Source: Planctomycetota bacterium
Lineage (GTDB): Bacteria > Planctomycetota > UBA1135 > UBA2386
Reading direction: 5' to 3'
Assembly: GCA_965662465.1 (NCBI GenBank)
Contig: CBFIIO010000007.1
Coordinates: forward strand, 97-64,096
DNA: 64,000 nucleotides
Shown here piece after piece: positions 10,001 to 54,397 of the stretch. Made by a program: the position numbers and the translations under genes. The notes beneath the pieces were generated by a model that worked only from the letters and a program-made list of their open reading frames with translations, was not told where the DNA came from and did no database searches. Position 1 is the stretch's first letter. Each line of letters opens with the position of its first letter.

Positions 10001-10419
10001 TGGCTTGCCTGTCTAGCGGCGTAGTTAGATTCCATGCTTTTATACCCCATCACTAGCTGATCACGTTCTGCGAGCGGCTGGTTGGTTTGATCGTGGATTG
10101 GCAGTGAAGCAAGCATTGAGATGGGCCGATAGTACAGCCTACTACAAGCCGCCGGAGTCAGCATGACTCGAAGTGCGGCAATGGTTTAGGGGTTTCGATT
10201 CGTTTTGATTACGTAGCACCGGGCCTGGGGATCAATTGGCGACGTCGTTGCTAGCTCTGATCGTCGCGGGGTTGCTTATGCAGCACAAGCGGCGTGGCCA
10301 TTTGTGACCCAGTTCCGCCGGCTGCCGCGGGGATTTTTGTCATTCGTGGATGTGTTCAATACGCAATTCTGTAACGGCAACAGAGAACCTTGGGCGCTGG
10401 GAGAATAGCATCGCAGCCA

Positions 10420-11682
10420 ATGCTGCAGTTCGTCTCTCTATGTGGAATCGTCGTGATGCTGGCGATCTGCTTTGTCTTCTCTCGTAATCGCCGTGCTATC
10501 AAGTGGCGCCTGGTCGGTACGGGGCTCGTGATCCAGGCAACGCTGGGGTTGATCTTCCTCTATTGGGATGCCGGCAACGCCGCGCTGCGTAGCGTTGGGA
10601 CCGGTGTCGATAAGTTCCTGAGCTTGTCGGCGGAGGGTAGTTCGTTCGTCTTCGGTGCACTGACCGATGGCGGCACCGTGGACGCCGCGATGCCAGGTGA
10701 CAACAACGGCTTCCTGTTTGCCTTCATGGTGTTGCCGACGCTGATCTTCTTCAGCAGCTTTATGGCGGTGCTCTATCACCTGGGCATCATGCAGTGGGTC
10801 GTTCGCCGCATGGCGAGCGTGATGGTGCGCCTGCTCGGGACGTCGGGCAGCGAGTCATTGTCCGCCTGCGGCAACGTCTTCGTTGGCCAGACCGAGGCGC
10901 CGCTGTTGGTGAAGCCATTCCTTGAGAAGATGACCATGAGCGAACTGCACGCGGTCATGGTTGGCGGCTTTGCGACCATCGCTGGCGGTGTGTTTGCCTT
11001 ATACGTGGGCTTTGGCGTCGACCCCGGACACCTAATGGTTGGCTCTGTCATGGCAGTGCCTGCTGGTTTGATCTGCACGAAGATGCTGTGGCCGGAAACC
11101 GAGGAGAGTGAGACAATGGGCACCGTTGGCAAAATCGATAACACGTCGTATGGCAACGTTGTGGAAGCCGCCGCTGGTGGTGCTGGTGACGGCATGAAGT
11201 TGGCTCTGAACGTCGCCGCGATGCTCATTGCATTCTTAGGTTTGGTTGCGGTGCTCAATGCTGGGCTGGGATTGGTCAGTGATCAATGGTCCGTCGGCGG
11301 CGGGCTCGCAATCATCTTCTGGCCGATTGCTGCCGTCATGGGCGTGCCATGGGATGAGATTCCGATACTTGCGGAGTTGCTCGGCACGAAGATCGCCCTC
11401 ACAGAATTGGTTGCTTACCAGCAACTCGGTGAGCTGATGAATCCGCCTGGTGATCTACCTAGCCAGATCTCACCTCGCACTGCATTGATCGCGAGCTTCG
11501 CCCTTTGTGGCTTTGCCAACATTGGCAGTGTCGCGATCCAGGTTGGCGGGCTCGGTGCGATGGCTCCAAGCCGGCGTGCAGACCTCGCGAAGCTCGGCTT
11601 GCGGGCGATGTTTGCTGGTGCCCTCGCGACTTGCATGACGGCTTGCGTGGCTGGCGTACTTTCCTCGGCAGTGGCGCTATGA
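10420..11682 (+). CDS. nupC: NupC/CNT-family concentrative nucleoside transporter
   Basis: Polytopic membrane protein with 'GSESLSACGNVFVGQTEAPLLVKPFL', 'MTMSELHAVMVGGFATIAGGV' and 'CGFANIGS'. The ATG at 10420 is preferred over the TTG at 10390. Confidence 0.88.
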   Translation: MLQFVSLCGIVVMLAICFVFSRNRRAIKWRLVGTGLVIQATLGLIFLYWDAGNAALRSVGTGVDKFLSLSAEGSSFVFGALTDGGTVDAAMPGDNNGFLFAFMVLPTLIFFSSFMAVLYHLGIMQWVVRRMASVMVRLLGTSGSESLSACGNVFVGQTEAPLLVKPFLEKMTMSELHAVMVGGFATIAGGVFALYVGFGVDPGHLMVGSVMAVPAGLICTKMLWPETEESETMGTVGKIDNTSYGNVVEAAAGGAGDGMKLALNVAAMLIAFLGLVAVLNAGLGLVSDQWSVGGGLAIIFWPIAAVMGVPWDEIPILAELLGTKIALTELVAYQQLGELMNPPGDLPSQISPRTALIASFALCGFANIGSVAIQVGGLGAMAPSRRADLAKLGLRAMFAGALATCMTACVAGVLSSAVAL

Positions 11683-12509
11683 GTGTCTCTGACGAACTGC
11701 AGCGTGTCGAAAGCGCCGCGAAGTGGCTGCATCATAAGCTTGGCAAAGAATACGTCGCCTCGATTCGGCTTGGTCTCGTTCTCGGTAGTGGCCTTAAATC
11801 GTTCGCTGGTGCGTTGACGAATGCGGTCGAGATCCCCTTTGGCGACGTTCCTGAGTGGCCGAAACCGAAGGTCGAAGGCCATGGTGGTTCGATCGTCTTT
11901 GGCGAGGTCGGCCCTGTAAGGGTGGCCTGTTTAACCGGTCGCGTCCATCTCTACGAGGGCTGGACTCCTAGCGAGGTGGTCCGGTGCGTTCGAACGCTGC
12001 GTCGCATGGGCATTGCCAAGTTCTTACTGACCAATGCTGCTGGCGGTATCGGCGATGTTATGGCTGCTGGTGATCTGATGGTCCTCAGTGATCATCTTAA
12101 CATGACTGGCCAAACCCCGCTCTTGGGAGACCATGAGCCTGCTTTTGGGCCGCGCTTCCCAGATCAGTCAAAGATCTACTCGGAGTCCCTGCGAGGGGCG
12201 CTGCTAGCTTGCGCTCCAAGCCTCAAGACTGGCGTTTACGCGGGCCTACTCGGCCCATCCTACGAGACCCCTGCAGAAGTGCGCATGTTGCGGACCCTGG
12301 GCGCCGATGCCGTTGGCATGAGCACCGTGCACGAAGCGATGGCGTTGAACGCAATGGGGGGAGAGGTCTGCGGCATGTCCTTGATCACCAACCTTGCCGC
12401 TGGAATCTCTTCGCAGCCGTTGTCACATGATGAAGTCATTGAGACTGGGCGGGTGGCGGCCTCGATGATGACTGAGGTTGTGGGAGATTTTTGCCGGAGG
12501 CTCGCGTGA
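11679..12509 (+). CDS. punA: Purine nucleoside phosphorylase (trimeric PNP/MTAP family)
   Basis: Motifs 'LGLVLGSGL', 'GHGGSIVFGE', 'GRVHLYEGW', 'LTNAAGGI', 'GPRFPDQS', 'GPSYETPAE' and 'GADAVGMSTVHEA'. The ATG overlaps the nupC stop (ATGA). The 5' part of the longer listed ORF (11505) lies inside nupC. Confidence 0.9.
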   Translation: MSVSDELQRVESAAKWLHHKLGKEYVASIRLGLVLGSGLKSFAGALTNAVEIPFGDVPEWPKPKVEGHGGSIVFGEVGPVRVACLTGRVHLYEGWTPSEVVRCVRTLRRMGIAKFLLTNAAGGIGDVMAAGDLMVLSDHLNMTGQTPLLGDHEPAFGPRFPDQSKIYSESLRGALLACAPSLKTGVYAGLLGPSYETPAEVRMLRTLGADAVGMSTVHEAMALNAMGGEVCGMSLITNLAAGISSQPLSHDEVIETGRVAASMMTEVVGDFCRRLA

Positions 12510-13519
12510 GTGGCGATGTGACGATTCGGCCGTATCAGCACGGCGACGAGCAGAAGATTCTCGAGACGTTCAACTTGGTCTTCCGCGAAGTGTGCGGACC
12601 CGACTACGTCGACCGGACGATGCAGCAGTGGCGTTGGGCTTATCCTGACAACCCCGCCGGTTCGCGAATCTCATTAGCAGTAGCGGATGACGGTACGATT
12701 GCTTCGCAGTATGCCGGGATGCCAATGCTCTATGACACAGAGTGGGGAGAGCATCGCCTGATTCATTGTGTTGACTCGATGACACACCCAGGCTGGCGAC
12801 AGGGTTTGAAGGCCAAAAGCCTGTTTGTCGAAACTTGCATGCCGTTTTGGGATCACTGCAAGGAGATCGGCGATGCCTTGTTTTACGGTTTCCCTGTCGA
12901 TGCGGCCTATCGCATTGGTAAGCGCTATCTCAAATACGAGATGATGCGTGTGATCGACTACTTGATTCGTGATCAATCGCTACCACTGCTACCGACAGTC
13001 GCGGGTGTAGAGGTTGAGATGGCAGAGGTTGTGCCTGCTGACCTTGGCGAATTGTATGCGGAAGTCCGAAGTGATAAGCGGTTCTTGATGCGTCGCGATG
13101 CGGCTTACATTGGTTGGCGATACTACGACAATCCTGCCAGCGCGGACTACGAAGTATGGACTGCGCGTCGATCTGGACAGTTGTGCGGTTTGATGGTGCT
13201 CAAGCCCGGCTCAGGTCTTGCTCCTGAATCTGCAACCATCGCCGACTGGGCAGTGCCCGAGGGGGATGTTGGTGCTAGCGATGCGTTGTTAGCCAAGGCA
13301 GTGCAGCGTCAGCATGACGAAGGCAAACTACGCTTGCTGACGGTCTTCCCACCTTGGTCAAAGGAATACCAGCACCTGCTGACTCGAGGGTTTGTGGATA
13401 CGCCTTCGGCCAATTGGATGCAGCGTCGCCTGATCCACAACATCTGCATCCCGGAGGTTACCGCGGAGTTCTTAGCTGAGAACTGGTGGTACACCCTTGG
13501 AGACAGTGACCTAGCCTAA
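12491..13519 (+). CDS. GNAT-family N-acetyltransferase-like protein (two-domain, ~340 aa)
   Basis: The N-terminus 'VTIRPYQHGDEQKILETFNLVF' and the size are typical of extended GNAT proteins. An alternative GTG start at 12506 overlaps the PNP stop (GTGA). The assignment is weak. Confidence 0.5.
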   Translation: MPEARVSGDVTIRPYQHGDEQKILETFNLVFREVCGPDYVDRTMQQWRWAYPDNPAGSRISLAVADDGTIASQYAGMPMLYDTEWGEHRLIHCVDSMTHPGWRQGLKAKSLFVETCMPFWDHCKEIGDALFYGFPVDAAYRIGKRYLKYEMMRVIDYLIRDQSLPLLPTVAGVEVEMAEVVPADLGELYAEVRSDKRFLMRRDAAYIGWRYYDNPASADYEVWTARRSGQLCGLMVLKPGSGLAPESATIADWAVPEGDVGASDALLAKAVQRQHDEGKLRLLTVFPPWSKEYQHLLTRGFVDTPSANWMQRRLIHNICIPEVTAEFLAENWWYTLGDSDLA

Positions 13520-13594: not shown

Positions 13595-15133
13595 TCACTC
13601 AGCTTGCTCTTTTTGGCGAGCTTTGTGCTCACGCAGCATTTCTTTTGCTTCGTCGTAGAACAAGTCGCGAGGGTCAATGCCTAGTGCGAGCAGTTGCTTG
13701 GCTTGTTTTGGGGTGCAGAGGCCAACTGCCTTGCGTTCGAGCAGTGATTCTCGGAGTTGTTCGGCTTGCTGACTGGACAGTTGGTCAACGCGATCCGATG
13801 GCAGGCCTGCTTTCTTGAAATACTGCAATTGGGAACTGGTTGCGCGCGCACCGCCGCGTGATCGACGGATGTAGAAGTCCAGGTCGATGCCAACCGCCTG
13901 GAACGGGTCACGCTTCTTTAATTGGTACTCCACCGTAGCTTCCTGAGCCTCTTGCTCTTGCTGGGCGAGTTCTAGGGCTCGCTCAAGAGCAATGGCCTGG
14001 CCTTCGCTGCTGACTTCCTGGGCGATGCGGCGCGCGCGTTCTTGTACTTCTGGATTAGCCGATGCAAAAATATCGACTGCCTGCGCTAGCGAATGACGAC
14101 AGTTGCCTGGCACAAAGTCGAGCACTAGCAGATCTTGCTTGCCGTTAGAGATACGCGTGCCGCGGCCAACCATCTGCGCGTAGAAGGAGCGAGACAGCAC
14201 CGGACGGGCGATGGCAACCAGCGCGATTTGAGGAACATCAAAGCCTTCGGTGAATAGGGAACAGTTCACCAGCACTTTGATTTCACCCCGGCGGAACCTG
14301 GCCAGCACTGGGGCGCGAACTTCGAAGGAACTGCTGCCGTCGAGTGCCGCGGCAAATTCTGGGTCATCAGCCTGCTCGTTCATTACGCGGCATAAGGCGT
14401 GGGCGTGAGCCACCGATGCCGCAAAGACGATTGCAGGTCGATCACCGCGTTCGCGCAGGATTGGCAGCACGATCTCTGCTAGGTGCAGTTCTTGGGTTAA
14501 AATGTCTTCGACATCACGGATTGCTAGCTCTCCCGCGACTTTACGAATGTTGGAAAAGTCAGCTTGCGTCTGCACCAGGAAAGATCGAATCGGGCACAAC
14601 CACCCATCTCGGATGGCGCGGCGCATGTCGTATTCGAATGCGACCGTGGAGAAAATCTCGCCTAGTGGAACGCGATCGCTGCGATCGGGGGTGGCAGTGA
14701 CGCCGAGTAAGTAGGCATCGAAGTGCTCAAGCACCGCGCGATAGGAATCAGATGTCGCATGATGGGCTTCGTCGACCACGATGATCTTGAATGCATCGTG
14801 GGGCACTTGCTTCAGTCGCTTAGAAAGCGACTGGATGCTGGCCACAGCGATCTTTGGTCGGGTGCCATCTGGCTTGGTGAAGCCGCGCTGGTGGGCCATC
14901 TCGACTGCAACCACGTCGTTGCACCATGCTGCGATCTTTTCGCGGGCTTGCTCGACCAGTTCTTGTCGGTGAGCAAGGACGAGCACTGGGCCCTTTGCAA
15001 GCCGTGATATTTCTGCGAACAGCACAGTTTTGCCGGTGCCGGTCGGCATCACTACGAGCGCCGCTTTATGCTTCTCGCGATAGGCATTGCGAACGGCTTC
15101 GAGGGCCGCCTCTTGGTAGGGGCGCAGCTTCAT
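13595..15133 (-). CDS. Superfamily-2 DEAH helicase (ResIII/XPB-Ssl2-like core) with C-terminal extension
   Basis: Motif I 'MPTGTGKT', motif II 'VVDEAHH', motif III 'GVTATP' and motif VI 'QMVGRGTR'. A ~130-aa C-terminal tail follows, with helix-rich 'QLQYFKKAGLP...PKQAKQLLALGIDP'. Confidence 0.85.
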   Translation of the reverse strand: MKLRPYQEAALEAVRNAYREKHKAALVVMPTGTGKTVLFAEISRLAKGPVLVLAHRQELVEQAREKIAAWCNDVVAVEMAHQRGFTKPDGTRPKIAVASIQSLSKRLKQVPHDAFKIIVVDEAHHATSDSYRAVLEHFDAYLLGVTATPDRSDRVPLGEIFSTVAFEYDMRRAIRDGWLCPIRSFLVQTQADFSNIRKVAGELAIRDVEDILTQELHLAEIVLPILRERGDRPAIVFAASVAHAHALCRVMNEQADDPEFAAALDGSSSFEVRAPVLARFRRGEIKVLVNCSLFTEGFDVPQIALVAIARPVLSRSFYAQMVGRGTRISNGKQDLLVLDFVPGNCRHSLAQAVDIFASANPEVQERARRIAQEVSSEGQAIALERALELAQQEQEAQEATVEYQLKKRDPFQAVGIDLDFYIRRSRGGARATSSQLQYFKKAGLPSDRVDQLSSQQAEQLRESLLERKAVGLCTPKQAKQLLALGIDPRDLFYDEAKEMLREHKARQKEQAE

Positions 15134-15331
15134 CGAGTAGGCAGGCTAGCGCGAGACGACGCTGAAGGCTCGCTTTGCTAACAAATCGCACCACTAGATT
15201 TTTTGTCGCCTAGGATTCTCGAAGAAGCCATCTAGTGGCGAAATCTAGGGCTTTTCGGGCATCTTTGCTCTGCCTGATCGCCATATTTGGCAAGACCACT
15301 TTGCGGTTTGCTGCCGTAGGGCTTTCTTCTG

Positions 15332-16297
15332 GTGCGGGGCTCGGATAACTCCAATGCAGTCATGTTGTCCTCTGCGATTGTGCTCGGCCCGCAGCGCCGC
15401 CACCCTATTGTCCGTACAGCGATCGATGATTTGGTCAGCGATCGCAGTTTGCCGGTTGCCGTCGTGACGGCTGGTTGGGAAGAGCGCGAAGATGAGGACG
15501 AGGAATTGCGTCAGCACGTGGGCCGACCCGTGACGAATTTGCAGGTCTGGTCTCGTGTTGAAAGCATCTTCAAGAAGGATCCAGAGCTCCGAGAAGCTGT
15601 GCGTGAACGTCACGATACTTGGCGAAGGGTTCAGGAACTCTACCGTTTGCGGCTGAACGGATTAATGGACAGCACGCGCGAGTTATTACGTCGAGGCCAC
15701 GCTGATCCATTGGTCGCTGTCGAAGAGTTGGACTCATGGGAACTGGTATGCGGGCTCGACGCGCAACACATGGCGCGCGTCTCGACAATTCACGCTGAAT
15801 TCATCGAGCGGGTGAAGCCAGCGGAACGAGATACCGTGCAGGACCAGTGTCGGCAGATCGAGAAACAGCTAGGTGATGCTTCGTGCTTGCTTGTGGCCGG
15901 CGGCCATGTCGGGGTTCTGCTGCACCGACTGCAGCTATTCGATGTGCCTGGGCTGTGGGGCGATCGTCCCACCATTGCATGGTCTGCTGGCGCGATGGCG
16001 CTGAGTGAGCGCGTGGTGTTGTTCCATGATGATCCTCCGCAGGGCAGTTCGTTCGCCGAGGTGATGGAGGCTGGCTTTGGCTTGCTGCCTGAGTTTGTGG
16101 CCTTGCCGCATGCCCGTCATCGTCTACGCACGGATGACAGTGTTCGAATCCGCATGTTGTCTCGCCGCTTCTACCCTGCAATGTGCGGGCTCCTTGATTA
16201 CGGGTCTCGATTCGATTGGCTGGATGGCAAGTGGTCTGCCCATGCCGGTGCTCGTCACCTGCATGCTGATGGCCTAGTGAAGGAGGCCTCACGATGA
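15332..16297 (+). CDS. Peptidase S51 (cyanophycinase/peptidase E fold)-like protein with ~130-aa helical insertion
   Basis: Strand 'PVAVVTAGWE', then a charged helical insert. The core motifs follow: 'CLLVAGGHVGVLLHRL' (GGN-type motif), nucleophile-elbow 'TIAWSAGAMALSE' (Ser218), and His260 in 'ALPHARH' about 42 residues later. The start is uncertain (GTG 15332 or ATG 15362). Confidence 0.6.
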   Translation: MRGSDNSNAVMLSSAIVLGPQRRHPIVRTAIDDLVSDRSLPVAVVTAGWEEREDEDEELRQHVGRPVTNLQVWSRVESIFKKDPELREAVRERHDTWRRVQELYRLRLNGLMDSTRELLRRGHADPLVAVEELDSWELVCGLDAQHMARVSTIHAEFIERVKPAERDTVQDQCRQIEKQLGDASCLLVAGGHVGVLLHRLQLFDVPGLWGDRPTIAWSAGAMALSERVVLFHDDPPQGSSFAEVMEAGFGLLPEFVALPHARHRLRTDDSVRIRMLSRRFYPAMCGLLDYGSRFDWLDGKWSAHAGARHLHADGLVKEASR

Positions 16298-17442
16298 GCA
16301 TGATGGAGCGAATCGAAGCGGCAATACGTGCGGGCGATGCGATTCATGGCCAGAGTGCAATTGACGACTTGATCCAGGATGTCGAGTTTCCCCATGTAGA
16401 GGGGCGCAACGTGACCTTCTTGTATCGAGGTGAGGCTGAAGAGGTGATGTTGCACCACTGGATTCACGGCTTGCCCGGGGAACTCCAGTTCCAGCGCCTG
16501 CAGCCCAGTAATTTGTGGGTGCTGCAGATCGACTTGCCGCGCCGTTCGCGGATGGAATACAAGATTGGTGTGATGATGCGTGGTCGCGGCCAGTTGGTTC
16601 GTGATCCGCTCAATTCCCATCTGGCACGTGACCCATTTGGCGCCAATTCGGTGGTCTACGGCGAAGGCTATGAGCCGCCGGAGTGGACCGTCGAAGATCC
16701 GGAAGCTCGCAAAGGCACGATCGAAAATCGTCACCTCGACAGTTCCGTATTTGGTGATTGGCGCCCTATTCAGATCTATCGACCGGCGCGCTTTCGCGAA
16801 ACGCGGCGATACCCGTTGCTGGTGGTGCACGATGGCCTCGACTATCTCAAGTTTGCGAACCTGCAGGAGATTCTAGACAACCTAATCCATCGCCTAGAGA
16901 TCCCACCGATGATTGCTGTGTTGACGCAGTCGCCAGATCGGATGACGGAGTATGCGGCGGATGTGCGCCATGCAGATTTTATCGTCAAAGACCTTGTGCC
17001 GCAGATGGAAGAGTTATTGCCGCTGGTCCGTGAACCATCGGCGCGCGCTCTGATGGGGGCGTCTTTTGGCGCCGTTGCGTCGCTTTCGACTGCGTGGCGC
17101 TATCCAGGCTTCTTCGCGAAACTGTTATTGCAGTCGGGTTCGTTTGTATTCACCGAGATTGGTGATCACGACCGGCCGCCGATATTTGATCCGGTTGTGA
17201 AGTTCGTCAATGACTTCCGTAAGAAGCCAGATCGTCCCGCTGAGTCGGTTTTCGTTAGCTGCGGTGTCTATGAGTCCCTGATCTACTACAATCGGGGACT
17301 GGTGCCTCTTCTGCAGGAAACTGGGATGCAGATTCGTTTTAGAGAGGCTAATGATGGCCACAACTGGGAGAACTGGAGAGATCGGCTGCGCGAAGGTCTT
17401 TCCTGGCTGTTCCCTGGTCCCTTATGGCACGTCTACGAGTAG
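16294..17442 (+). CDS. Esterase (esterase D/Fes-type alpha/beta hydrolase) with N-terminal E-set/Ig-like domain
   Basis: N-terminal beta-sandwich-like 'VTFLYRGEAEEVMLHH...LQFQRL...LWVLQIDLPRRSRMEYKI'. Hydrolase part 'YPLLVVHDGLDYL' with GxSxG 'MGASFGAVAS', then 'DGHNWENW'. AGGAGG at 16281-16286. The ATG overlaps the upstream stop (ATGA). Confidence 0.75.
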   Translation: MSMMERIEAAIRAGDAIHGQSAIDDLIQDVEFPHVEGRNVTFLYRGEAEEVMLHHWIHGLPGELQFQRLQPSNLWVLQIDLPRRSRMEYKIGVMMRGRGQLVRDPLNSHLARDPFGANSVVYGEGYEPPEWTVEDPEARKGTIENRHLDSSVFGDWRPIQIYRPARFRETRRYPLLVVHDGLDYLKFANLQEILDNLIHRLEIPPMIAVLTQSPDRMTEYAADVRHADFIVKDLVPQMEELLPLVREPSARALMGASFGAVASLSTAWRYPGFFAKLLLQSGSFVFTEIGDHDRPPIFDPVVKFVNDFRKKPDRPAESVFVSCGVYESLIYYNRGLVPLLQETGMQIRFREANDGHNWENWRDRLREGLSWLFPGPLWHVYE

Positions 17443-17507
17443 TGTTTCGTAGCGAAAGTCTGTTGGCCTGTCGATTGTCCCAAATGTCGTCCTGCTGATT
17501 GCAAAGA

Positions 17508-18752
17508 ATGCCTTCTGTTACCCGTAATATTGGTCTCTCTCTCGGTGCCGACATTTGTTGGCCGATCGCCTTCGAAGAAATCCTTGCCGACAGCAAGCTC
17601 AGCTTGAAGGTTGGTAAGGACGTCGTCGACTTCGCCTGCGAACGTGTTGGCCTCAAGCCGTTTGCGCTGGACAAGGGCTGCAAATACGACTTGGTAGTCG
17701 ATCGCTTAACGCACTGGTTCACGCTGCAGCGTGAGTGGATCAAGAAGGGCGTCTTGATGGACGACCTTTACGTCTACAACAATCCGTGGTCGATCCAGAG
17801 TTACGAGAAGCATTCGAGCTACTGCGCGATGACGGCTCTGGGCATGCCTATCCCCAAGACAGTCATGTTGCCGCAGAAGAACTACGGCGAGTCGAGTGAT
17901 CTCGACTACACGCTGGAGAAGTATGCCAGCATGTTTGACCTCACTGAAATCGGCGATGGCCTTGGCTACCCGTCATTCCTCAAGCCATTTGACGGTGGTG
18001 GTTGGCGAGGTGTTTCGAAGGTCGACAACGCGGCGGAACTTGCCACCGCTTACGATGAGAGCGGCAAAGATCTGATGCACTTGCAGGCAGCAGTTCATGA
18101 CTTTGACGTGTTCGTGCGCGCGGTGGGTATTGGCCCACAGGTTCGTGTCATGAAATACGATCCGAGCCAACCTCTGCATGGCCGTTATCGCGTCGACCGC
18201 GATTTCGTTTCGAAGGCTGATGAGCAGCTCATCATAGATACCACGTTGACCATCAACGCGTTCTTTGGCTGGGACTTCAACAGCTGTGAGATGTTGAGCA
18301 AGGACGGTGTTTACTATCCGATCGACTTCGCGAACCCCTGTCCCGATAGCCAAGTCAACTCGATCCATTACCACTGGCCGTGGTATGTGTTGAGCAATTT
18401 GAAGTGGGCGGTATTCAACGCGGCGACCAATCGAAAGATGCGCAAGACGGTCGACTTCGAGCCCTTCTACAGCATTGCTAAGAAAGATCTCAGTTACGCA
18501 GACAAGCTCAAGGGATACGCCAAGATTGCTCGGGAGCGCTTGGCAACGAGTGAGTTTGATGCCTTCAGCAAGGCTCATTTATCGCCGTTGGAAGATGCTG
18601 CTTTTGCTTGGTTTAGGAGTGACCGCTGTCTGGATGCGATCCGTCAGAAGGTCAGCCATGTATTTCCAGCCCATGAGGTTGACGAGTTCACCGGCAAGTT
18701 CCACGCCTTGGTGATGCAGTCTGTCGACGAGCTAGCTAGCGCAAGCGCGTAA
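17508..18752 (+). CDS. Divergent ATP-grasp superfamily ligase, substrate unknown
   Basis: ATP-grasp hallmarks 'YPSFLKPFDGGGWRGVSKV' (phosphate-binding Lys/Gly-rich loop), 'MHLQAAV.DFDVFVRAVGIG' and a C-terminal metal-ligand region 'FNSCEMLSKDGVYYPIDFANPCPD'. I do not recognise it as RimK, GshB, Ddl or CphA. A TTG at 17499 is an alternative start. Confidence 0.7.
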   Translation: MPSVTRNIGLSLGADICWPIAFEEILADSKLSLKVGKDVVDFACERVGLKPFALDKGCKYDLVVDRLTHWFTLQREWIKKGVLMDDLYVYNNPWSIQSYEKHSSYCAMTALGMPIPKTVMLPQKNYGESSDLDYTLEKYASMFDLTEIGDGLGYPSFLKPFDGGGWRGVSKVDNAAELATAYDESGKDLMHLQAAVHDFDVFVRAVGIGPQVRVMKYDPSQPLHGRYRVDRDFVSKADEQLIIDTTLTINAFFGWDFNSCEMLSKDGVYYPIDFANPCPDSQVNSIHYHWPWYVLSNLKWAVFNAATNRKMRKTVDFEPFYSIAKKDLSYADKLKGYAKIARERLATSEFDAFSKAHLSPLEDAAFAWFRSDRCLDAIRQKVSHVFPAHEVDEFTGKFHALVMQSVDELASASA

Positions 18753-18809
18753 GCTGAGCTGATACCTAGCTTCGTCCTCTCCCCAAACCCGTTTGAAGGC
18801 AGTCGAGTT

Positions 18810-19604
18810 TTGAGTAAGCACAAGATCACTTGGAAATCCCCAGCTCTTGGTGGCAAGGAAATTACTTTCTGTCGCTACGGGGTGTCTGGGACGCCCTTGC
18901 TCCTGTTTCCGACTGCCGGCGGTGATGCAGAAGAGCCCGAGCGTTTTCATTTGATCTCGGCAATTGGCGATTTCCTCGCTGATCTGCGACTGAAGGTCTA
19001 CACCGTCGATTCTGTCGCTGGCCAGGCATGGCTAAAGGACTGTCGGACGCTCGGTGAGGGGGCCAAAGCACAGAATCGTTTTGATGAGTGCTTGGTGCGC
19101 GAAGTTGTGCCTGCCATCCATCGTGATTGCGGTGGCGACGCTGGCTTGATTTGGACTGCTGGCGCGTCGATCGGGGCATTCAATGCATTGTCTTTGTTGT
19201 GCCGCCACCCCGGCTTGTTCCATACCGCGATCTGCATGAGCGGCACCTACAACATGGACAAGTTCTTAGATGGGGCGATGACGCGTGAATACTACAACTC
19301 GTCACCGCTCGACTTCGTGCCAGACTTGCAAGGCAAGCATCTTGAACTGCTTCGAAAGCGCTTCATTTTATTGGCTCATGGTGAAGGTGATCATGAAGAG
19401 CCAGCGCAGAGCTGGAACGTAGAGAAGGTCTTAGGCGCAAAGGGCATCCCGAACCGTGTCGATGGTTGGGGGAGCGAATGGCAGCATGATTGGGTGACCT
19501 GGCGCAAAATGCTGCCGCAGTTCTTGGGCGAGTTCTTGCCCCCTAAGCAAGAAGTCGAGGCTTCAAGCGATGCCGGCGATAGCGACAGCTTGATCGATTC
19601 GTAG
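18810..19604 (+). CDS. Second esterase-family alpha/beta hydrolase (no E-set domain)
   Basis: Motifs 'PLLLFPTAGGD' and GxSxG 'AGASIGAFNALS', with C-terminal 'HDW' His. Apparent TTG start. The acidic tail is 'EVEASSDAGDSDSLIDS'. Confidence 0.65.
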   Translation: MSKHKITWKSPALGGKEITFCRYGVSGTPLLLFPTAGGDAEEPERFHLISAIGDFLADLRLKVYTVDSVAGQAWLKDCRTLGEGAKAQNRFDECLVREVVPAIHRDCGGDAGLIWTAGASIGAFNALSLLCRHPGLFHTAICMSGTYNMDKFLDGAMTREYYNSSPLDFVPDLQGKHLELLRKRFILLAHGEGDHEEPAQSWNVEKVLGAKGIPNRVDGWGSEWQHDWVTWRKMLPQFLGEFLPPKQEVEASSDAGDSDSLIDS

Positions 19605-19750: not shown

Positions 19751-21037
19751 TCATTCCCACTGGTGGTTTGCGCCGATGATCACAATCCCCGTGTCGGAAA
19801 CCGTGAAACGTCGCTCGTCTTCTTCGCGATCGAAGCCGATGACCGTGCCTTCGGGCACCTCATTCCACTTGTCGACGATGCAGCGCTTCAGTCGGCAGTT
19901 TTTGCCAATCCGCGCGCCCCGCATGATGATGCACTCATCAAGTTCGGCACGTTCGTCGACGTAGACGAGGTTGCTAAGAACCGAGCGGTTGACGCTGCCG
20001 CCGCTGACGACGACTCCCGGTGCCAGCAATGAGTCGGCGACTTTGGCGCGGCGTCCAGGTTCGTCGCCTTCATCAGGCTCGTTGAACACAGTCTTGGCTG
20101 GTGGGTCGTTGTGCCAGAGTGTGTAGGTCGGCCAGTCCTTTCGATACAGGTTGAGTTGCGGCTTAACGTTGCAGAGGTCCATGTGCGCGTCGAAGTAGGC
20201 TTCGATCGTGCCGACATCACGCCAATACGGCTCCTCTTCACTGCCAAGGCCAGCGAATGAGTGAGCATAGATCGGGACGTCACCGAGCATGCGTGGAATG
20301 ACATGATGGCCGAAGTCGCCACCTTCGCCTTCAGGTAGCTTGCCGTCTTCCTTTAGGCGGCGAACCAGCTCCTCGGACTCGAAAACATAGATCCCCATTG
20401 AGGCAAGGCAGAAGCCTGGTTCGCCTGGGATCTCGGGAGCGTTTTCTTGCGGCTTTTCGACGAAGCCAGTGATCCGCTTGTTTTCGTCGACTTCTAGGAT
20501 TCCAAAGCTTGAAGCTTCTGTGACCGGAATCTTGACGGCCCCGATGGTCAACGCGGCTTTGTGCTCGACATGCTCTCGCAGCATGTCTCGGTAGTCCATC
20601 TGGTAGATGTGGTCACCCGACAAGATGATGACGTTTTTCGGCTTCCAGTCGATGATGCTATCGATGTTGTGATAGATCGCATCTGCTGTGCCGCGATACC
20701 ACTTGCCAACCGATACGTGGTGGGGTGGGCTACAAGTGATCCATTGCTCAAGCCGTCTTGGCAAAAAGCTCCAGCCGAAGCGAATATGTTCTTCTAGGCT
20801 TCGCGCTTGGTATTGGGTCAGCAGATGAATCCGGCGTAGACCCGAATGAATGCAATTGCTGAGCGTGAAGTCGATGATGCGATAGCTGCCCCCAAACGGA
20901 ACGGCCGGTTTGGCACGTTGCTGCGTGAGGGGCGCCAAGCGGCTGCCAGCGCCGCCCGCAAGAATGAAGACGAGGGTGTTCCTGAGGTCTAACGGGACCA
21001 TGCGTGAGGCAGCGGTTGAAGTATCGGCGAGTGACAA
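19751..21037 (-). CDS. glgC: Glucose-1-phosphate adenylyltransferase
   Basis: Motifs 'ILAGGAGSRLAPLTQQRAKPAVPFGGSYRIIDFTLSNCIHSG', 'YRGTADAI' and 'ILSGDHIYQMDY', plus a C-terminal left-handed beta-helix. The start is TTG 21037 or ATG 21001. Confidence 0.92.
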   Translation of the reverse strand: MSLADTSTAASRMVPLDLRNTLVFILAGGAGSRLAPLTQQRAKPAVPFGGSYRIIDFTLSNCIHSGLRRIHLLTQYQARSLEEHIRFGWSFLPRRLEQWITCSPPHHVSVGKWYRGTADAIYHNIDSIIDWKPKNVIILSGDHIYQMDYRDMLREHVEHKAALTIGAVKIPVTEASSFGILEVDENKRITGFVEKPQENAPEIPGEPGFCLASMGIYVFESEELVRRLKEDGKLPEGEGGDFGHHVIPRMLGDVPIYAHSFAGLGSEEEPYWRDVGTIEAYFDAHMDLCNVKPQLNLYRKDWPTYTLWHNDPPAKTVFNEPDEGDEPGRRAKVADSLLAPGVVVSGGSVNRSVLSNLVYVDERAELDECIIMRGARIGKNCRLKRCIVDKWNEVPEGTVIGFDREEDERRFTVSDTGIVIIGANHQWE

Positions 21038-21160: not shown

Positions 21161-23236
21161 ATGTCAGCAGCTTGTTCTTCTGAGTCGTCAGATTCCCAGC
21201 CGGGACCTCGGGGTGTCCCTTCTGATTTGGTCTCGTCTGTCCAGTCGCTCGCTGTTGATTCAGCCGTAGCCCTCGAGCGGGAATGGTTATTGACCGATGG
21301 CCGGGGCGGCTATGGCTGCGGCACCGCAGGCGGTGTTGCGACCCGTCGCTACCACGGTTTGTGGGTTACGCGGACCGATGGCCTCGCCCAGCGACATATG
21401 GTGGTGGCAGGGCTCGACGAGCGTCTGGGGCCGGCGCGGCGTGTTGGTGAGCAAGATCCTCGCTTTGCACATGTTATGTCTGCTCATTGGCTTGAGCAGG
21501 CCCAGCCGACGGCCGGGGACGGCCAGGTTTCTTTTGCCCGGAGGCCCCTGCCGACGTGGACCTTTGAGACAGAATTTGGCGTGATCGAGCGGACCATCAC
21601 GCTGCGTCGTGAGGTTCCCGGGGTCGCCCCAGCATTGCTGGTGCGTTGGCGTAATTGCTCGGACCACCCTGTGCGGCTGGAGGTTCGTCCTTTGCTTGGC
21701 TGGTGCAATGTCGACCATTTGCTCACAGCCGACGACTCATTCGATGAGACCATTCATGCCAGTGGGGCTAGCTGGGGATTTCGGCCGACAGACGAATTAC
21801 CGCACTTGTGGCTGTCGGTGGACGGTGTGTCTGCCTTTCGGAGTGAACCAGTCTGGTACAATGATTTTCTTTACGCCGCCGATCGTTTGCGTGGCTACGA
21901 CCACGTTGGCGACCGCTGGAGTCCTGGCGTCTTGGAGCTAGACTTGCCTGCTGGCAGTGAAGCAACCGCATCATTTGCGCTAGAGGAACCGCTCACGGCT
22001 GCGGCCCAGACATTTGAGCATCTCGAGAGTCAGGCTGACGCCGAATGGCGTGAGGCCTCGCAGCAAGAGCATTTGCTTACCGCGCAGCTTTCGCTCGGGG
22101 CTCGAGATTTCTTCTATCGCTCGGTTGATGGGCGTCTCGGGGTGATCGCTGGCTTTCCATGGTTTGGAGAGTGGGGACGCGATGTGTTCTTGGCGTTGCC
22201 TGGTTTGACTTTGGCGCGTGGTGATATTGCGGTGTGCGCTGAGGTGATGGTTGGTTGCCTGCCGTTTTTGCGGCAAGGGTTACTGCCCAATATCTACAAC
22301 TCAGATGTCTCAAGTAGTGATTATGGCAGTTGCGATGCAGCGCTGTGGTTTGCGCTGTGCGTCATGAGATTTGCCGATGCTGGCCATGATCCCGAATTAG
22401 TGCAGCAAAAGTTTTTGCCGGCGTTGCGCAGCATTGTTGAGGCATATGAAGGCGGCACTGATCTCGGTTTGAAGGTTGCGGAAGATGGCTTGCTGCAAGC
22501 TGGTAGTGAACATCTAAACGCAACGTGGATGGATGCTCGTACTTCGGACGGTCCAGTCACACCGCGCGAGGGATTGCCGGTTGAGATTCAGGCCCTTTGG
22601 TATGCGCTACTAACGTATCTGGCGGAGCAATTCCCCGAGTCCAGCTACCAAGCAATGCGCGCTCGTTGCGGCAAAGCATTCGTCAAGCAGTTCTGGCTTG
22701 TTGAATCGAAGTCATTGGCAGATCGAGTTCATGCCGGGGTGGCAGATACCTCAGTGCGGCCAAATATGCTGGTTGCTGCGGCGCTGTCGCGCTCGCCGCT
22801 GACTGCGGCGCAACGCCAAGCAGTCGTCAAGGTTGTGAAGGCACATCTGGTCACGCCATGCGGGCTACGAACTCTTAGTCCCGAAGCAGGCGACTACATT
22901 GGCGTTTACGGCGGCGGTATCGATGGTCGAGACAAGGCTTATCATCAAGGAACAGTTTGGCCGTGGCCGGCGGGTTTCTATGTCGAGGCGGCGCTTCGTG
23001 CGGCGCCCAAAAGGTCCCGTAAACGAGAAGCAAAAGCCCTGCTGCAATGGCTTGATGAGTTGCTGCAATCTGAATTGCCGAGAGCCGGTCTTGACCACGT
23101 CAGCGAAGTGTTTGACGGCGACTTACCGCATCGCCCAGGCGGAACGTTTGCACAGGCTTGGAATACTGGCGAGTTGCTACGCGCCCATGCGCTATGCCAA
23201 CAGGTAATCGATGGCACAAATATGGAGCTCCAGTGA
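21161..23236 (+). CDS. Glycogen debranching enzyme (archaeal-type GDE / amylo-alpha-1,6-glucosidase family)
   Basis: N-terminal 'REWLLTDGRGGYGCGTAGGVATRRYHGL' and (alpha/alpha)6 barrel motifs 'GFPWFGEWGRDVF', 'NATWMD' and 'VEIQALWY'. C-terminal 'AYHQGTVWPWPAGFY' and 'SEVFDGD.P..P.G..AQAWNTGELLR'. Confidence 0.88.
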   Translation: MSAACSSESSDSQPGPRGVPSDLVSSVQSLAVDSAVALEREWLLTDGRGGYGCGTAGGVATRRYHGLWVTRTDGLAQRHMVVAGLDERLGPARRVGEQDPRFAHVMSAHWLEQAQPTAGDGQVSFARRPLPTWTFETEFGVIERTITLRREVPGVAPALLVRWRNCSDHPVRLEVRPLLGWCNVDHLLTADDSFDETIHASGASWGFRPTDELPHLWLSVDGVSAFRSEPVWYNDFLYAADRLRGYDHVGDRWSPGVLELDLPAGSEATASFALEEPLTAAAQTFEHLESQADAEWREASQQEHLLTAQLSLGARDFFYRSVDGRLGVIAGFPWFGEWGRDVFLALPGLTLARGDIAVCAEVMVGCLPFLRQGLLPNIYNSDVSSSDYGSCDAALWFALCVMRFADAGHDPELVQQKFLPALRSIVEAYEGGTDLGLKVAEDGLLQAGSEHLNATWMDARTSDGPVTPREGLPVEIQALWYALLTYLAEQFPESSYQAMRARCGKAFVKQFWLVESKSLADRVHAGVADTSVRPNMLVAAALSRSPLTAAQRQAVVKVVKAHLVTPCGLRTLSPEAGDYIGVYGGGIDGRDKAYHQGTVWPWPAGFYVEAALRAAPKRSRKREAKALLQWLDELLQSELPRAGLDHVSEVFDGDLPHRPGGTFAQAWNTGELLRAHALCQQVIDGTNMELQ

Positions 23237-24573
23237 TTGACGTCGTCTTTTATTTCCAGGTGCACCAGCCCTACCGGCTAAAGAAGTTGCAGCCTCAGGA
23301 CCCGGTGCGTCGTTTGGATTATTGGGACACCCCGCTCAATAGAATGGTTGCGGAGCGCGTTGCCGAGCGATGCTACATTCCAATGAATAAGTTGCTGCTT
23401 GATGCTATCGAGCGCACAGATGGCCAGTTTCGTTGCTCATTCTCGCTGTCGGGCACGGTCATCAGGCAGCTCCGGGATTGGGTTCCTGAAGCCCTCGATA
23501 CGTTTGTAGCACTTGCAGAAACCGGCAATGTCGAGTTCTTGTGCGAAACGAGTCAGCATGGGCTTGCTGCGATCGGCAACTTCGAGGAGTTTGCAGATCA
23601 GGTAGCGATCCAAAAAAAGACTGTCACCGATCTATTTGGTAAGCCGACGTCGTTTCGTAACACCGAGCTGATCATGGACAATGGCATCTGCCAGAAAGTC
23701 GAAGAGCTTGGTTTCGATTGCATGCTTGGTGAAGGGGCCGATCGCTTGCTGGAATGGCGTAGCCCCCAGGTGCCATATCGTCCAAAAGGTTGTGAGCGTC
23801 TGAAGCTACTGCTTCGCAGCTTCTCATTGTCTGACGACATTGCGTTTCGATTCTCGAATCCTGATTGGCCTAGCTACCCGTTGTTTGCGGATACTTTTGC
23901 TGATTGGCTCCACAGCGTGCCTTCACCGGCCCAGTTTGTTGGGCTGTTCATGGACTATGAGACCTTCGGTGAGCATCAGAATGCGCAGACTGGCATCTTT
24001 GATTTCATGGAGCACTTGCCAGAGCGTGTGCTCGAAGACAGTAGCTTCAGGTTTCGCACCCCAGCGCAGGTTTGTTCTGAGCGTGAAGCGGTGCACGACC
24101 TCGACATAAGCTCACCTATCTCATGGGCTGATGAGGCTCGCGATCTCTCGGCTTGGTTGGGAAATCCGATGCAGAGATCTGTTCACCAACAGCTCTATGC
24201 GATGCGTGAAGACGTGTTTCGTGCTAGCAAGGCCCGCCCTGAGTTGCTGGCTACGTGGCGTGAATTGACGACTTCCGATCACGTCTACTACATTGCTACT
24301 GCGAACCACAGCGATGGCGAGGTCCACGATTACTTCAGTCCCTACGATCATCCTCATGCAGCGTTTGTCACGGTCATGACGGCAATCGAAGGGTTGCGTG
24401 CTGAGATCCAAAAGTGTCTCGCAAGTTCTGAGTCTAAGGTCGTCGAGGTTGTGCCGGCTGCTCGTCAGGCGGCCGCCGATGCGGTGGACTCGCCCCGTGC
24501 CAAATCAACCAAGCGGAAGCCATCCCCGAAGGTCGCGCCGAAGACGAAGTCTCCAGGTCGGCGCAAGAAGTAA
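23233..24573 (+). CDS. Glycoside hydrolase family 57 alpha-glucan enzyme with Lys/Pro-rich basic C-terminal tail
   Basis: Begins 'VIDVVFYFQVHQPYRL' (GH57 HQP motif), followed by 'MDYETFGEH'. GTG start overlaps the upstream stop (GTGA). The tail is 'SPRAKSTKRKPSPKVAPKTKSPGRRKK'. Confidence 0.85.
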   Translation: MIDVVFYFQVHQPYRLKKLQPQDPVRRLDYWDTPLNRMVAERVAERCYIPMNKLLLDAIERTDGQFRCSFSLSGTVIRQLRDWVPEALDTFVALAETGNVEFLCETSQHGLAAIGNFEEFADQVAIQKKTVTDLFGKPTSFRNTELIMDNGICQKVEELGFDCMLGEGADRLLEWRSPQVPYRPKGCERLKLLLRSFSLSDDIAFRFSNPDWPSYPLFADTFADWLHSVPSPAQFVGLFMDYETFGEHQNAQTGIFDFMEHLPERVLEDSSFRFRTPAQVCSEREAVHDLDISSPISWADEARDLSAWLGNPMQRSVHQQLYAMREDVFRASKARPELLATWRELTTSDHVYYIATANHSDGEVHDYFSPYDHPHAAFVTVMTAIEGLRAEIQKCLASSESKVVEVVPAARQAAADAVDSPRAKSTKRKPSPKVAPKTKSPGRRKK

Positions 24574-50872: not shown

Positions 50873-52267
50873 ATGCATCTGGAGTCTCTGGGTGGTTCTC
50901 CGTATGGTGCTCGCCCCTTAGTGAGACTTCCACGCGTAGCAATTGTTGGTCGACCCAATGTCGGCAAGTCCAGTTTGATGAACCGGCTGGTGGGCCGACG
51001 TGTGTCCATTGTGGAGCCTACAGCTGGCGTTACGCGCGACCGGGTCTCGGTGGTGGTCCGCAATGATGACTATGCATATGAACTCGTCGACACTGGTGGC
51101 CTCGGGCTGGTTGATGAGGCTTTGCTTAAGGAGCACATCGACTCTCAGATTGCGGTTGCCATCGATACCGCTGACTTGATCCTGTTCCTGGTCGACGGCA
51201 AGGAAGGGCGAGTGCCGGGTGACGATTTGGTTTCGCGCCGTCTGCGACCGTTGCAGAGTCGAGTGCTGTTGGTTGCCAACAAAATGGAGTCGTATTACGA
51301 CGAAATCGCTGCCAGTCAGTGGCTGCGACTCGGCTTCGGTGAGCCGGCTGTAATCAGCGCCAAGGAAGGGTTCGGCGTACACGACATGATGGAGCGCATC
51401 GGTCAACTGCTGCCGAGCGTGCTAGCTACCTCGGAGGCAGATGAGGATGAGAATACGTTGCGATTTGCAATCATTGGCAAGCGCAACTCAGGCAAGTCAA
51501 CGATGCTGAATCGTTTGGCCCAGGAAGACCGAGTCATTGTTAGCGACGTGCCGGGAACCACGCGTGATGCTGTCGATGTGGAACTCCAGCACGAGGGGCG
51601 CAAGTTGCTTGCGATTGACACTGCTGGTGTTCGCAAAAAGAAAAGCCTAGAGCATGCCATCGAACTGTTTGCGCATTCGCGCAGCAACGAGAGCATCCGC
51701 CGTGCGCATATCTGTGTGCACATGTTTGATGTGCGCGACAAGATCAGCCAAGTAGATAAAACTTTGTCTGCCTACTGCGTTGAGCAGAGCAAGCCGTTGA
51801 TCTTGGTCGGCAACAAAATCGATCTCGCTGAAAAGGAAAACGACGGCACCTTTGATATCGAAAAGTGGGACAAATACATCAAGCAGCAGCTGCCCGGGGT
51901 AGACCATGCGCCGGTAGTGTTCTTGTCAGCGCTCGAAGGTACTAACGTCGTTGAGATGTTAAGCCTGCTGTTCGACCTTCGTGAACAGACCTCGCGCGAC
52001 ATCCCTACGCCGCTGCTCAACGACGAACTACAGAAAGCCAAAGAGAAGTTGATGCCATCTGGCGGCAACATTCCCAAGCTGTTCTACGGGACCCAGGTCG
52101 GCAAGGAGCCGCTCTCAGTCGTCGTGTTTGTGAATGACCCAAAGCTGTTTAAGGGGCCATACACGCGTTATCTCGAGCAGCGCTTGCGCGATCGTTTCGA
52201 CTGCCAAGAAGTCCCGGTGCGGATCATCTTTAAGCGTCGAGAGAAGGTCATCCTCAAGAATCGCTAG
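50873..52267 (+). CDS. der: Ribosome-associated GTPase Der (EngA)
   Basis: Two tandem G domains: 'GRPNVGKSS/DTGG/NKME' and 'GKRNSGKST/DTAG/NKID', plus a KH-like C-terminus. An alternative ATG lies at 50801. Confidence 0.92.
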   Translation: MHLESLGGSPYGARPLVRLPRVAIVGRPNVGKSSLMNRLVGRRVSIVEPTAGVTRDRVSVVVRNDDYAYELVDTGGLGLVDEALLKEHIDSQIAVAIDTADLILFLVDGKEGRVPGDDLVSRRLRPLQSRVLLVANKMESYYDEIAASQWLRLGFGEPAVISAKEGFGVHDMMERIGQLLPSVLATSEADEDENTLRFAIIGKRNSGKSTMLNRLAQEDRVIVSDVPGTTRDAVDVELQHEGRKLLAIDTAGVRKKKSLEHAIELFAHSRSNESIRRAHICVHMFDVRDKISQVDKTLSAYCVEQSKPLILVGNKIDLAEKENDGTFDIEKWDKYIKQQLPGVDHAPVVFLSALEGTNVVEMLSLLFDLREQTSRDIPTPLLNDELQKAKEKLMPSGGNIPKLFYGTQVGKEPLSVVVFVNDPKLFKGPYTRYLEQRLRDRFDCQEVPVRIIFKRREKVILKNR

Positions 52268-52317
52268 TGCGCTTGCGTTGGCTGGCCCGCTTGCATGCGG
52301 TTGCCGGTCAAGCGCTG

Positions 52318-53811: not shown

Positions 53812-54397
53812 ACGTGATGATGCGCGTTCATTTGTAACTGCTGGGGCCTCTCAAATCTTGCTCTTGATACCTTCGTCTTTGGGATCTTGGGCTTGCTTGA
53901 TGAGTTAGCTGACTCCGGTGGCAATCTCATCCGGATCTCGATGGCGCGAGTATTACCTCGCGCACGGCTGGAAGTAGCTAAATCCGATCGGCTTTGTGAG
54001 GGGAGCGTCAGTGAAATTCAGAGGTTTCTTGCGTAGTCGTAAGGAGAGAATTTATGGCTGGCCTTGTTACGAGACCCAGTCTTTACGTGTTGACTGAAGA
54101 TACTTTCCATTCTGCGCTGTGCCGAAACCTAGTTTGTCTCTCCTACGCTAAGTATAGCGGCAAACAGTCATCCGCGCGGTAGCTCCCTTGGTATGGGTGT
54201 TCAGAATCACGAACGTCGCATGTGATTAGGTGTAGCCCAGATATCGGCCCGTATTGAGACGGGGACACGAACCGGCCAAAGCTGCATCCTCTCAATTTCC
54301 GAGAACTATTATGGCTGCAATGTGGCAGCCTCAGCCCTGTTTGGGTTCTTAGTGCTATGCTGTTAAGCAGATCAATTCAGGCAACCTCGCTCTAAAG

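Follow-up and report, generated by a model that had tools for sequence, protein, structure and literature searches.

What do four closely packed genes that put an ATP-grasp ligase among three putative hydrolases do for the bacterium that carries them? The question is raised by positions 15362-19604 of a 64-kb stretch of a Planctomycetota genome assembly (contig CBFIIO010000007.1; the whole stretch analysed is called the window hereafter), where four closely spaced open reading frames (ORFs) follow one another on the + strand in the order gene 1 (S51-like putative serine hydrolase), gene 2 (enterochelin-esterase-like protein), gene 3 (ATP-grasp ligase) and gene 4 (second serine esterase). The four genes recur together across bacterial phyla, and the combination of a ligase family that neither Pfam nor NCBIfam contains, an S51-like protein with a large helical insertion and two Fes/CE1-type esterases is without a characterised member. 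Our preferred reading, to which we would give roughly one chance in three, is that they form a module that both builds and degrades one compound, an acidic oligo- or poly-amino-acid or else an amino-acyl conjugate, with ties to reserve metabolism.

The cassette across bacterial phyla

The initial annotation of the window had named co-localisation in other genomes, in advance, as the refuting check on its reading of the four genes, and the operon passed it strongly. A scan of 185,579 species-representative genomes, one per species, found a relative of the ligase in at least 589; the family comprises 4934 clusters at 90% identity (E ≤ 0.001) and 871 representatives at 50% identity (E ≤ 1e-10). 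Synteny was read from 83 related genome loci; 80 loci were fetched, all of them from metagenome-assembled genomes, and neighbouring genes were counted over 84 loci. The phyla and classes sampled are Planctomycetota, Myxococcota, Gammaproteobacteria, Alphaproteobacteria, Acidobacteriota, Gemmatimonadota, Actinomycetota (Acidimicrobiales) and Eisenbacteria. In cassette counts made by tblastn with the four window proteins, where the denominators are the evaluable loci, gene 2 lies directly 5' of the ligase in 60/77 and gene 4 directly 3' of it in 60/76, gene 1 adjoins gene 2 in 58 of the 75, and all four genes are present in 46 of the 70. Order and orientation are kept over at least eight phyla at 35-63% protein identity, the ligase itself being 52-59% identical between phyla, and the flanking genes vary by locus. 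Because the same gene order recurs in so many phyla, the adjacency is far beyond chance: the four genes are inherited as one unit and their proximity is not accidental. Accidental adjacency of genes that share no function, which has the lack of a known pathway and nothing else in its favour, is refuted by this synteny across phyla with different flanks, and we give it virtually no credence.

The cassette varies at its edges. Gene 1 is absent and gene 2 more diverged in a set of mainly proteobacterial loci and in two actinobacterial ones. The pairing of ligase and S51 protein survives at great distance, as in locus L091 (5305-7991; L numbers are our handles for loci), where a ligase 35% identical to gene 3 begins 6 nt after the gene for a 486-aa S51 protein that has a GISAGA elbow and a helical insertion longer than that of gene 1, with which it aligns through the insertion region; PF00756 esterases are absent from this locus and a convergent GDSL lipase gene lies downstream. 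In L092 (6348-7988) a single 546-aa frame directly 5' of a distant ligase spans homologues of gene 2 (its esterase part) and gene 4, with a middle portion of low complexity rich in Arg and Pro and a glgC-like gene divergently upstream; the frame may be a true fusion or a frameshift artefact of assembly. A second gene 3 paralogue (29% identity) lies near a distant family member in L090 (4955-5995, - strand), so that the ligase family has duplicated locally in some lineages. The closest named relatives are Planctomycetota genomes assembled from metagenomes, public contigs whose ligase gene is identical (one of these contigs derives from a TARA marine metagenome) keep the gene order unchanged, and a search of a plasmid collection with the ligase gave no match.

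Within the window, the compact layout described at the outset was confirmed: four packed genes on one strand, an ATGA overlap between the stop of gene 1 and the start of gene 2, an AGGAGG ahead of gene 2, and short gaps of 65 nt between genes 2 and 3, counted to ATG 17508 (56 nt if counted to TTG 17499), and of 57 nt between genes 3 and 4. Gene 3 starts at ATG 17508, giving 414 aa, the length of nearly all homologues. The start of gene 1 had to be moved. It had been placed at GTG 15332 and is almost certainly ATG 15362, since the homologues, which share the N-terminus MLS.AI.LGPQR in 27 of 27 aligned sequences, and the public gene call, also of 311 aa, agree on it. Base composition is even across the operon region, a consensus scan of that region for sigma-70 promoters and terminators did no better than on shuffled sequence, and an Rfam search of it returned no RNA family, riboswitch or leader RNA. 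An anti-phage defence system was considered and set aside, as none of the four operon proteins (0/4) matches any PADLOC defence model.

The four proteins

Gene 3 had been described as an ATP-grasp protein outside several familiar families (RimK, GshB, Ddl, CphA and the carboxylases), and both halves of that description stand. Its AlphaFold2 model, predicted from 28 homologues (predicted local distance difference test score (pLDDT) 84.5, predicted TM-score (pTM) 0.87), has the three-domain ATP-grasp architecture followed by a C-terminal helical domain of about 100 residues. Searched with Foldseek against the PDB, the model matched 440 chains at E ≤ 0.001, of which the best 50 listed are all ATP-grasp enzymes; among the matches listed are Ddl, VanA, LysX/ArgX, synapsin and a graspetide ligase, at 11-17% identity. 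Ranked by E-value, Ddl and VanA come first, by fold as well as by sequence profile; LysX/ArgX have the highest target-normalised TM-scores (0.62-0.69), some Ddl chains reaching 0.66 and the top scores of LysX/ArgX, these Ddl chains and synapsin together spanning 0.60-0.69. Judged by its predicted fold, gene 3 is a member of the ATP-grasp superfamily.

By curated cut-offs, in contrast, the gene 3 sequence falls outside every characterised ATP-grasp family, RimK, LysX, Ddl/Van, the biotin carboxylases and cyanophycin synthetase included. All Pfam scores (best 16.5 bits vs 24) and all NCBIfam scores (best 19.3 bits vs cut-offs of at least 218) stay below threshold; the Ddl and Van models of NCBIfam give 12-19 bits against cut-offs of 243-775, and LysX/ArgX, at 13-15% identity, is represented by TIGR02144 (LysX) with 14.9 bits against 275.6. 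The best Pfam and NCBIfam scores all fall on the ATP-binding segment around FLKPFDGGGW, to which the alignments from single-sequence and profile searches of the PDB are likewise confined (approximately residues 137-190), and Pfam detects no other domain beyond the ATP-grasp matches. A weak profile match to the RimK N-domain, a similarity to the L-amino acid ligase BL00235 (E = 0.009-0.027) and a best cyanophycin synthase match at E = 0.35 were also seen. Residues K159, the G163/G164 loop, Q193, E261, D273 and N276 are invariant or nearly so, including in subfamilies about 30% identical. Since the residues expected to bind ATP (the Lys and the glycine loop) and Mg (the acidic and Asn positions) are thus kept in remote subfamilies, gene 3 looks catalytically intact and active.

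The predicted structure of gene 1 (AlphaFold2; pLDDT 88.4, pTM 0.87) is a flavodoxin-like core broken by four helices at residues 62-171. The helical insertion had been noticed before, although in the model it measures about 110 rather than 130 residues and follows the third rather than the first beta-strand. The ten best Foldseek matches in the PDB are all S51 or putative peptidase E structures (E = 1.3e-5 to 9e-3), including peptidase E, dipeptidase E, cyanophycinase and the acI actinobacterial peptidase 6nqc, and the next match after this group is not significant (E = 0.2), in keeping with the S51-like assignment originally made. The S51 structures matched, of 202-266 residues, are too short to hold the insertion. 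By sequence, gene 1 scores 19.4 bits with PF03575, under the cut-off of 23.9, a precomputed PF03575 match is present in many of its homologues, and PDB sequence and profile searches with gene 1 gave no match.

The conservation of the presumed catalytic Ser and His of gene 1, whose loss in homologues the initial annotation had named as refuting a peptidase role, held in part. Among 59 homologues from many phyla, position 208 in the W-S-A-G-A elbow is Ser in 54, Cys in 3 and Thr in 2, whereas H250, the His 42 residues downstream, is kept in 40 and is otherwise N, Q, D, E, S or A. Two other histidines, H222 and H182, are respectively invariant and present in 57/59, and either could stand in for H250 in catalysis. 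Also invariant are E43, R254 and R269; R189 is found in 58/59, and E233 (55/59) and E/D236 (51/59) are candidates for the acidic member of a triad. This pattern makes a hydrolase role for gene 1 plausible, with a classical triad not guaranteed.

Genes 2 and 4 had been called a Fes-type hydrolase with an N-terminal E-set domain and a second esterase, and the profile searches bear this out. Gene 2 scores 60.6 bits (E = 2.6e-16) and gene 4 26.8 bits with the Pfam Esterase model PF00756, whose cut-off is 22. In PDB sequence searches gene 2 comes closest to Fes 2b20 (E = 1.6e-10) and to CE1 ferulic acid esterases that carry E-set/CBM48 domains, and it shares with these enzymes the two-domain layout and the Ser-His-acid esterase core. 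Its N-terminal domain matches Enterochelin_N below the cut-off (E = 0.0067) and matches no CBM48 model of Pfam, and the protein as a whole gets 89.6 bits from the NCBIfam enterochelin esterase model NF007758, under the equivalog cut-off of 222. A signal peptide is not evident in gene 2. The nucleophile Ser, the C-terminal His and a Glu are at least 95% conserved both in gene 2 (GASFG elbow; 70 homologues) and in gene 4 (GASIG elbow; 63 homologues). All of the motifs originally quoted for the four proteins (LLVAGGH and AWSAGA in gene 1, GASFGA in gene 2, FLKPFDGGGWRGVSKV in gene 3, GASIGA in gene 4) are found in the translations.

Extra ligases, glycogen genes and other neighbours

Clustering of neighbourhood ORFs after a filter on codon-position GC, with counts confirmed by targeted tblastn, identified two recurrent associations around the cassette. 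One is with further ligases: 50 of the 84 loci hold L-amino-acid-ligase (Lal)-type ATP-grasp genes (one to three, of about 405 aa) and/or YbdK-type ligases. Searched against the PDB, the extra ATP-grasp genes match the L-amino acid ligase 4wd3 best (E = 9e-19), with BL00235 and BacD next; their closest relatives are the stand-alone L-amino acid ligases (RizA, BacD, BL00235). They occur in other phyla and are absent from the window. The YbdK/GCS2-type carboxylate-amine ligases of the same loci are in some cases fused to a CBS pair. A Lal-type gene lies directly 5' of gene 1 and co-directional with it in 22/52 loci, and a GCS2-CBS gene directly 3' of gene 4 in 11/50; a protein of the latter kind, GCS2-like with a C-terminal CBS pair and about 650 aa long, comes just after gene 4 in L022, L025, L035, L036 and other Myxococcota loci. 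Adenosine ligands are the usual partners of CBS pairs, whose presence hints that energy state or ionic strength regulates the extended cluster. An aspartoacylase-like (AstE/AspA-like) deacylase is also encoded in three loci. This abundance of amide-bond enzymes around the cassette fits amide-ligation chemistry. The clustering of the fetched loci showed no recurrent family of transporters, receptors, exporters, regulators or tailoring enzymes and no conserved small carrier or target gene, for which the intergenic gaps are also too short. In several Planctomycetota loci (L004, L006, L009, L013, L014) gene 4 is directly followed by the gene for a protein of some 530 aa that matches the MtrC/MtrF domain faintly, and in some of them by that for an SGNH-like protein of about 410 aa after it; both are absent from the window.

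A second recurrent association is with glycogen metabolism. The window glgC scores 435.2 bits with TIGR02091 (cut-off 424.9), and the trio of glgC, debranching enzyme and GH57 enzyme that follows the operon (Table 1) also follows it in L004, L012 and L060; in L004 the glycogen group runs on into a gene whose 1409-aa product joins glycogen synthase and phosphorylase domains. Of the 84 loci, 31 have a glycogen gene no more than 7 kb from the ligase, in arrangements that differ by phylum: glgA sits 5' of or between the extra ligase genes in Myxococcota, Gammaproteobacteria, Gemmatimonadota and some Planctomycetota and Acidobacteriota, and glgC, debranching enzyme and GH57 lie downstream in the clade of the window. 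Two glgA genes were tested and both score above the TIGR02095 cut-off; the window holds no glgA within its 64 kb. As a genome of several megabases has no more than a handful of glycogen genes, we put the chance of meeting one inside a 15-kb segment at roughly 1%, an estimate of ours and not a computed value. At so low a chance per locus the linkage between cassette and glycogen genes is probably real, and glgC, possibly functionally linked, is likely not an unrelated flank. The initial annotation had regarded the genes on both sides as unrelated, a view that is doubtful for glgC and holds for the helicase on the other side.

Table 1. Positions of the cassette, its signals and the adjoining genes in the window
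Feature	Position	Strand	Basis or remark
GNAT-like protein, 342 aa (Acetyltransf_9, weak)	12491-13519		
DEAD/ResIII helicase gene, divergent	13595-15133	-	Between the GNAT-like gene and gene 1
Presumed promoter and 5' untranslated region of the operon	15134..15361	+	Intergenic, between the divergent helicase gene and gene 1
Gene 1, S51-like putative Ser hydrolase, 311 aa	15362..16297	+	AlphaFold2 fold, Foldseek
Gene 2 ribosome-binding site AGGAGG	16281..16286	+	Sequence
ATGA overlap of gene 1 stop and gene 2 start (translational coupling)	16294..16297	+	Sequence
Gene 2, enterochelin-esterase-like, N-terminal E-set and PF00756 serine esterase, 382 aa	16294..17442	+	Pfam
Gene 3, ATP-grasp ligase of unclassified family, 414 aa	17508..18752	+	AlphaFold2 fold, Foldseek, conserved residues
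Gene 4, second PF00756-type serine esterase without N-terminal domain, 264 aa	18810..19604	+	Pfam
glgC (glucose-1-phosphate adenylyltransferase), convergent with gene 4, outside the operon	19751..21037	-	NCBIfam TIGR02091
Glycogen debranching enzyme (GDE_N/GDE_C) and GH57 enzyme	21161..24573	+	Precomputed Pfam, identical public contig L001

Upstream of the cassette, the helicase is missing at this position in related genomes. Since gene 1 comes next after the GNAT-like gene in related Planctomycetota loci (L004, L008, L010, L012, L016), with at most a small ORF in between, the helicase appears to be an insertion specific to this lineage. Positions 10390-13519 of the window encode a nucleoside transporter, a purine nucleoside phosphorylase and the GNAT-like protein, and the same trio precedes the cassette in L004, L008 and L012, probably as inherited gene order and not as a functional link. 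On the scale of the window, GC skew is positive in every 2-kb bin except 38001-40000, AT skew is negative in every bin except 52001-54000, and most long ORFs are on the + strand; the near-uniform signs of the two skews suggest that the entire window lies on one replichore with the + strand leading.

What the cassette may build and break down

How these genes might work together can be sketched from their domains and their company. Gene 3 would use ATP to turn a carboxylate into an acyl-phosphate and couple it to an amine, or possibly to a hydroxyl; the carboxylate would most likely belong to an acidic amino acid, or be the C-terminus of a growing oligo- or poly-amino-acid or of an amino-acyl conjugate. 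The three hydrolases would break down the product of gene 3, gene 1 as a peptidase and genes 2 and 4 by acting on ester, thioester or unusual amide bonds, so that the four genes would make up, as tentatively as the module itself is proposed, one cytoplasmic ligase and hydrolase cassette. The compound would belong to reserve or starvation metabolism, a role suggested by the recurrence of the glgA/glgC linkage. One ligase with three hydrolases argues for a compound that is stored and mobilised over a secreted end product, as do the lack of a recurrent transporter and, again, the glycogen linkage. That the product should be built on acidic amino acids is suggested by the LysX/ArgX-like fold of gene 3, the conserved arginines of gene 1 and the aspartoacylase-like and Lal/YbdK neighbours, as well as by the preference of characterised S51 peptidases for aspartyl peptides. 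An amide-ligation and turnover system is what had been suspected from the window, and the domains, the co-localisation and the ligase and deacylase neighbours are in line with it; its "make and recycle" part stays conjectural, and the glycogen link had been missed.

Several observations weigh against our preferred reading, which was arrived at from gene content and fold. The similarity of gene 3 to its nearest fold neighbours is generic (TM 0.4-0.7, 11-17% identity), which makes the acidic amino-acid substrate a guess taken from those neighbours. The peptidase activity of gene 1 is not assured, its expected catalytic His being replaced in 19/59 homologues. The esterases are the weakest fit, natural as they would be if the bond were an ester: PF00756 members are esterases, thioesterases or acyltransferases, and with such a chemistry an ester-linked product is easier to reconcile than a pure peptide. 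Alpha/beta-hydrolases related to polyhydroxybutyrate (PHB) depolymerases can cleave poly-aspartate, at most a lead for the esterases, as no structure of that kind is among the sequence matches of gene 4. The window itself has no extra ligase within its 64 kb. Lastly, co-regulation or an inherited gene order, and not shared chemistry, could lie behind the glycogen linkage.

Operons in which an ATP-grasp ligase is accompanied by a hydrolase are already familiar, cyanophycin and RimK being examples. The cyanophycin system, in which CphA1 makes what CphB mobilises, is like the cassette in that an ATP-grasp ligase is encoded beside an S51-fold serine hydrolase, and the cassette would likewise be a synthesis and mobilisation pair for a reserve compound. 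This analogy, drawn already in the initial annotation, stops at the pairing. CphA1 has a Mur-ligase-like domain and an N-terminal domain besides its ATP-grasp domain, whereas gene 3 consists of an ATP-grasp core and a helical C-terminal domain with no counterpart of these other domains; gene 1 differs from cyanophycinase in its insertion and in an expected catalytic His that is not universal. For these reasons the cassette fails as a member of the cyanophycin system, of which, to our knowledge, two esterases are not a part either.

Of the other explanations, the likeliest is that several stand-alone ligases (gene 3, Lal-type, YbdK/GCS2) assemble a small metabolite, non-ribosomal peptide or amino-acyl in nature, which might be an osmolyte, a low-molecular-weight thiol or an antimetabolite, and that the hydrolases serve in maturation, salvage or self-protection. 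The Lal-type and/or YbdK-type ligases in 50/84 loci speak for it, and so do their favoured places, the Lal-type gene directly 5' of gene 1 (22/52) and the GCS2-CBS gene directly 3' of gene 4 (11/50). We nevertheless consider it rather unlikely: the lineage of the window has the four-gene core without an extra ligase nearby, three hydrolases per ligase are unusual for biosynthesis, no exporter, regulator or tailoring enzyme recurs, and a ligase identity of 52-59% across phyla resembles core metabolism more than a secondary metabolite. The misfit of the esterases would vanish if gene 3 made an ester, as VanA and the graspetide ligases do, and the esterases reversed it, the target being a hydroxyl of an alpha-glucan or a hydroxy-/amino-acid polyester. 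VanA shows that the ATP-grasp fold can make ester bonds, and both it and a graspetide ligase are among the fold matches of gene 3; genes 2 and 4, two of the three hydrolases, are esterases whose catalytic residues are intact, gene 2 shares its E-set and CE1 layout with CBM48-bearing carbohydrate esterases, and glycogen genes are linked in 31/84 loci, differently arranged from phylum to phylum. Set against this, the N-terminal domain of gene 2 is weakly Enterochelin_N and matches no CBM48, about 60% of the loci have no glycogen gene within 7 kb, and the S51-like partner is left unexplained. We know of no covalent glycogen modification of this ester type, and regard the proposal as improbable. 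A graspetide system proper, producing a ribosomally synthesised and post-translationally modified peptide (RiPP), was set aside, because a precursor gene would not fit into the operon and specific similarity is lacking.

An equally improbable alternative takes its cue from the fold. RimK, LysX and ArgX activate, as an acyl-phosphate, a Glu-type carboxylate on the C-terminus of a peptide or carrier protein, and gene 3 might be a protein modifier of this kind, directed at a protein encoded elsewhere, with hydrolases that trim or remove the modification. LysX/ArgX are among its closest folds, the RimK N-domain profile matches weakly, and some public annotations call homologues "RimK family alpha-L-glutamate ligase". 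The RimK family model TIGR00768 is, however, not among the best 25 NCBIfam matches of gene 3, all of which are far under their cut-offs; the cassette has neither a carrier-protein gene nor an S6-type target, its gaps being too short for a small one, gene 3 bears an extra helical domain, and the esterases would have no obvious role. Still less probable, to a degree that we find it hard to entertain, is the catabolism or salvage of an imported ester-linked compound, for instance a catecholate siderophore whose backbone is cleaved by Fes. The best named matches of gene 2 are indeed enterochelin esterases. Its score stays far from the Fes cut-off (89.6 vs 222 bits), it differs from the Fes/CE1 enzymes in having a ligase partner and no siderophore or plant-cell-wall context, and an ATP-consuming ligase is unexpected in siderophore hydrolysis. 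TonB receptors, ABC importers and iron-related genes are not recurrent in the 84 neighbourhoods, and a siderophore esterase system was set aside on that ground.

These comparisons leave the build-and-degrade module as the reading that we favour. A bolder version of it, on the whole unlikely in our estimation, is that the cassette and its Lal/YbdK ligases make and mobilise an unrecognised intracellular reserve or stress compound in hundreds of species of at least eight phyla, coupled to glgA/glgC; such a compound could be a cyanophycin-like poly-amino-acid, a polyester, or an amino-acyl or acyl decoration of glycogen. The operon is undescribed in the full-text literature searched; the amidoligase survey of Iyer and colleagues (2009) may already list its neighbourhood.

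The identity of 52-59% that the ligase maintains between phyla suggests that its function is constrained, and probably important, in soil and marine groups that are abundant. The linkage with glycogen genes and dipeptide-type ligases provides a testable lead to a new storage or stress metabolite. If the proposal is true, the carbon and nitrogen reserve metabolism of bacteria would gain a pathway, and biocatalysis would gain new ligase and hydrolase activities.

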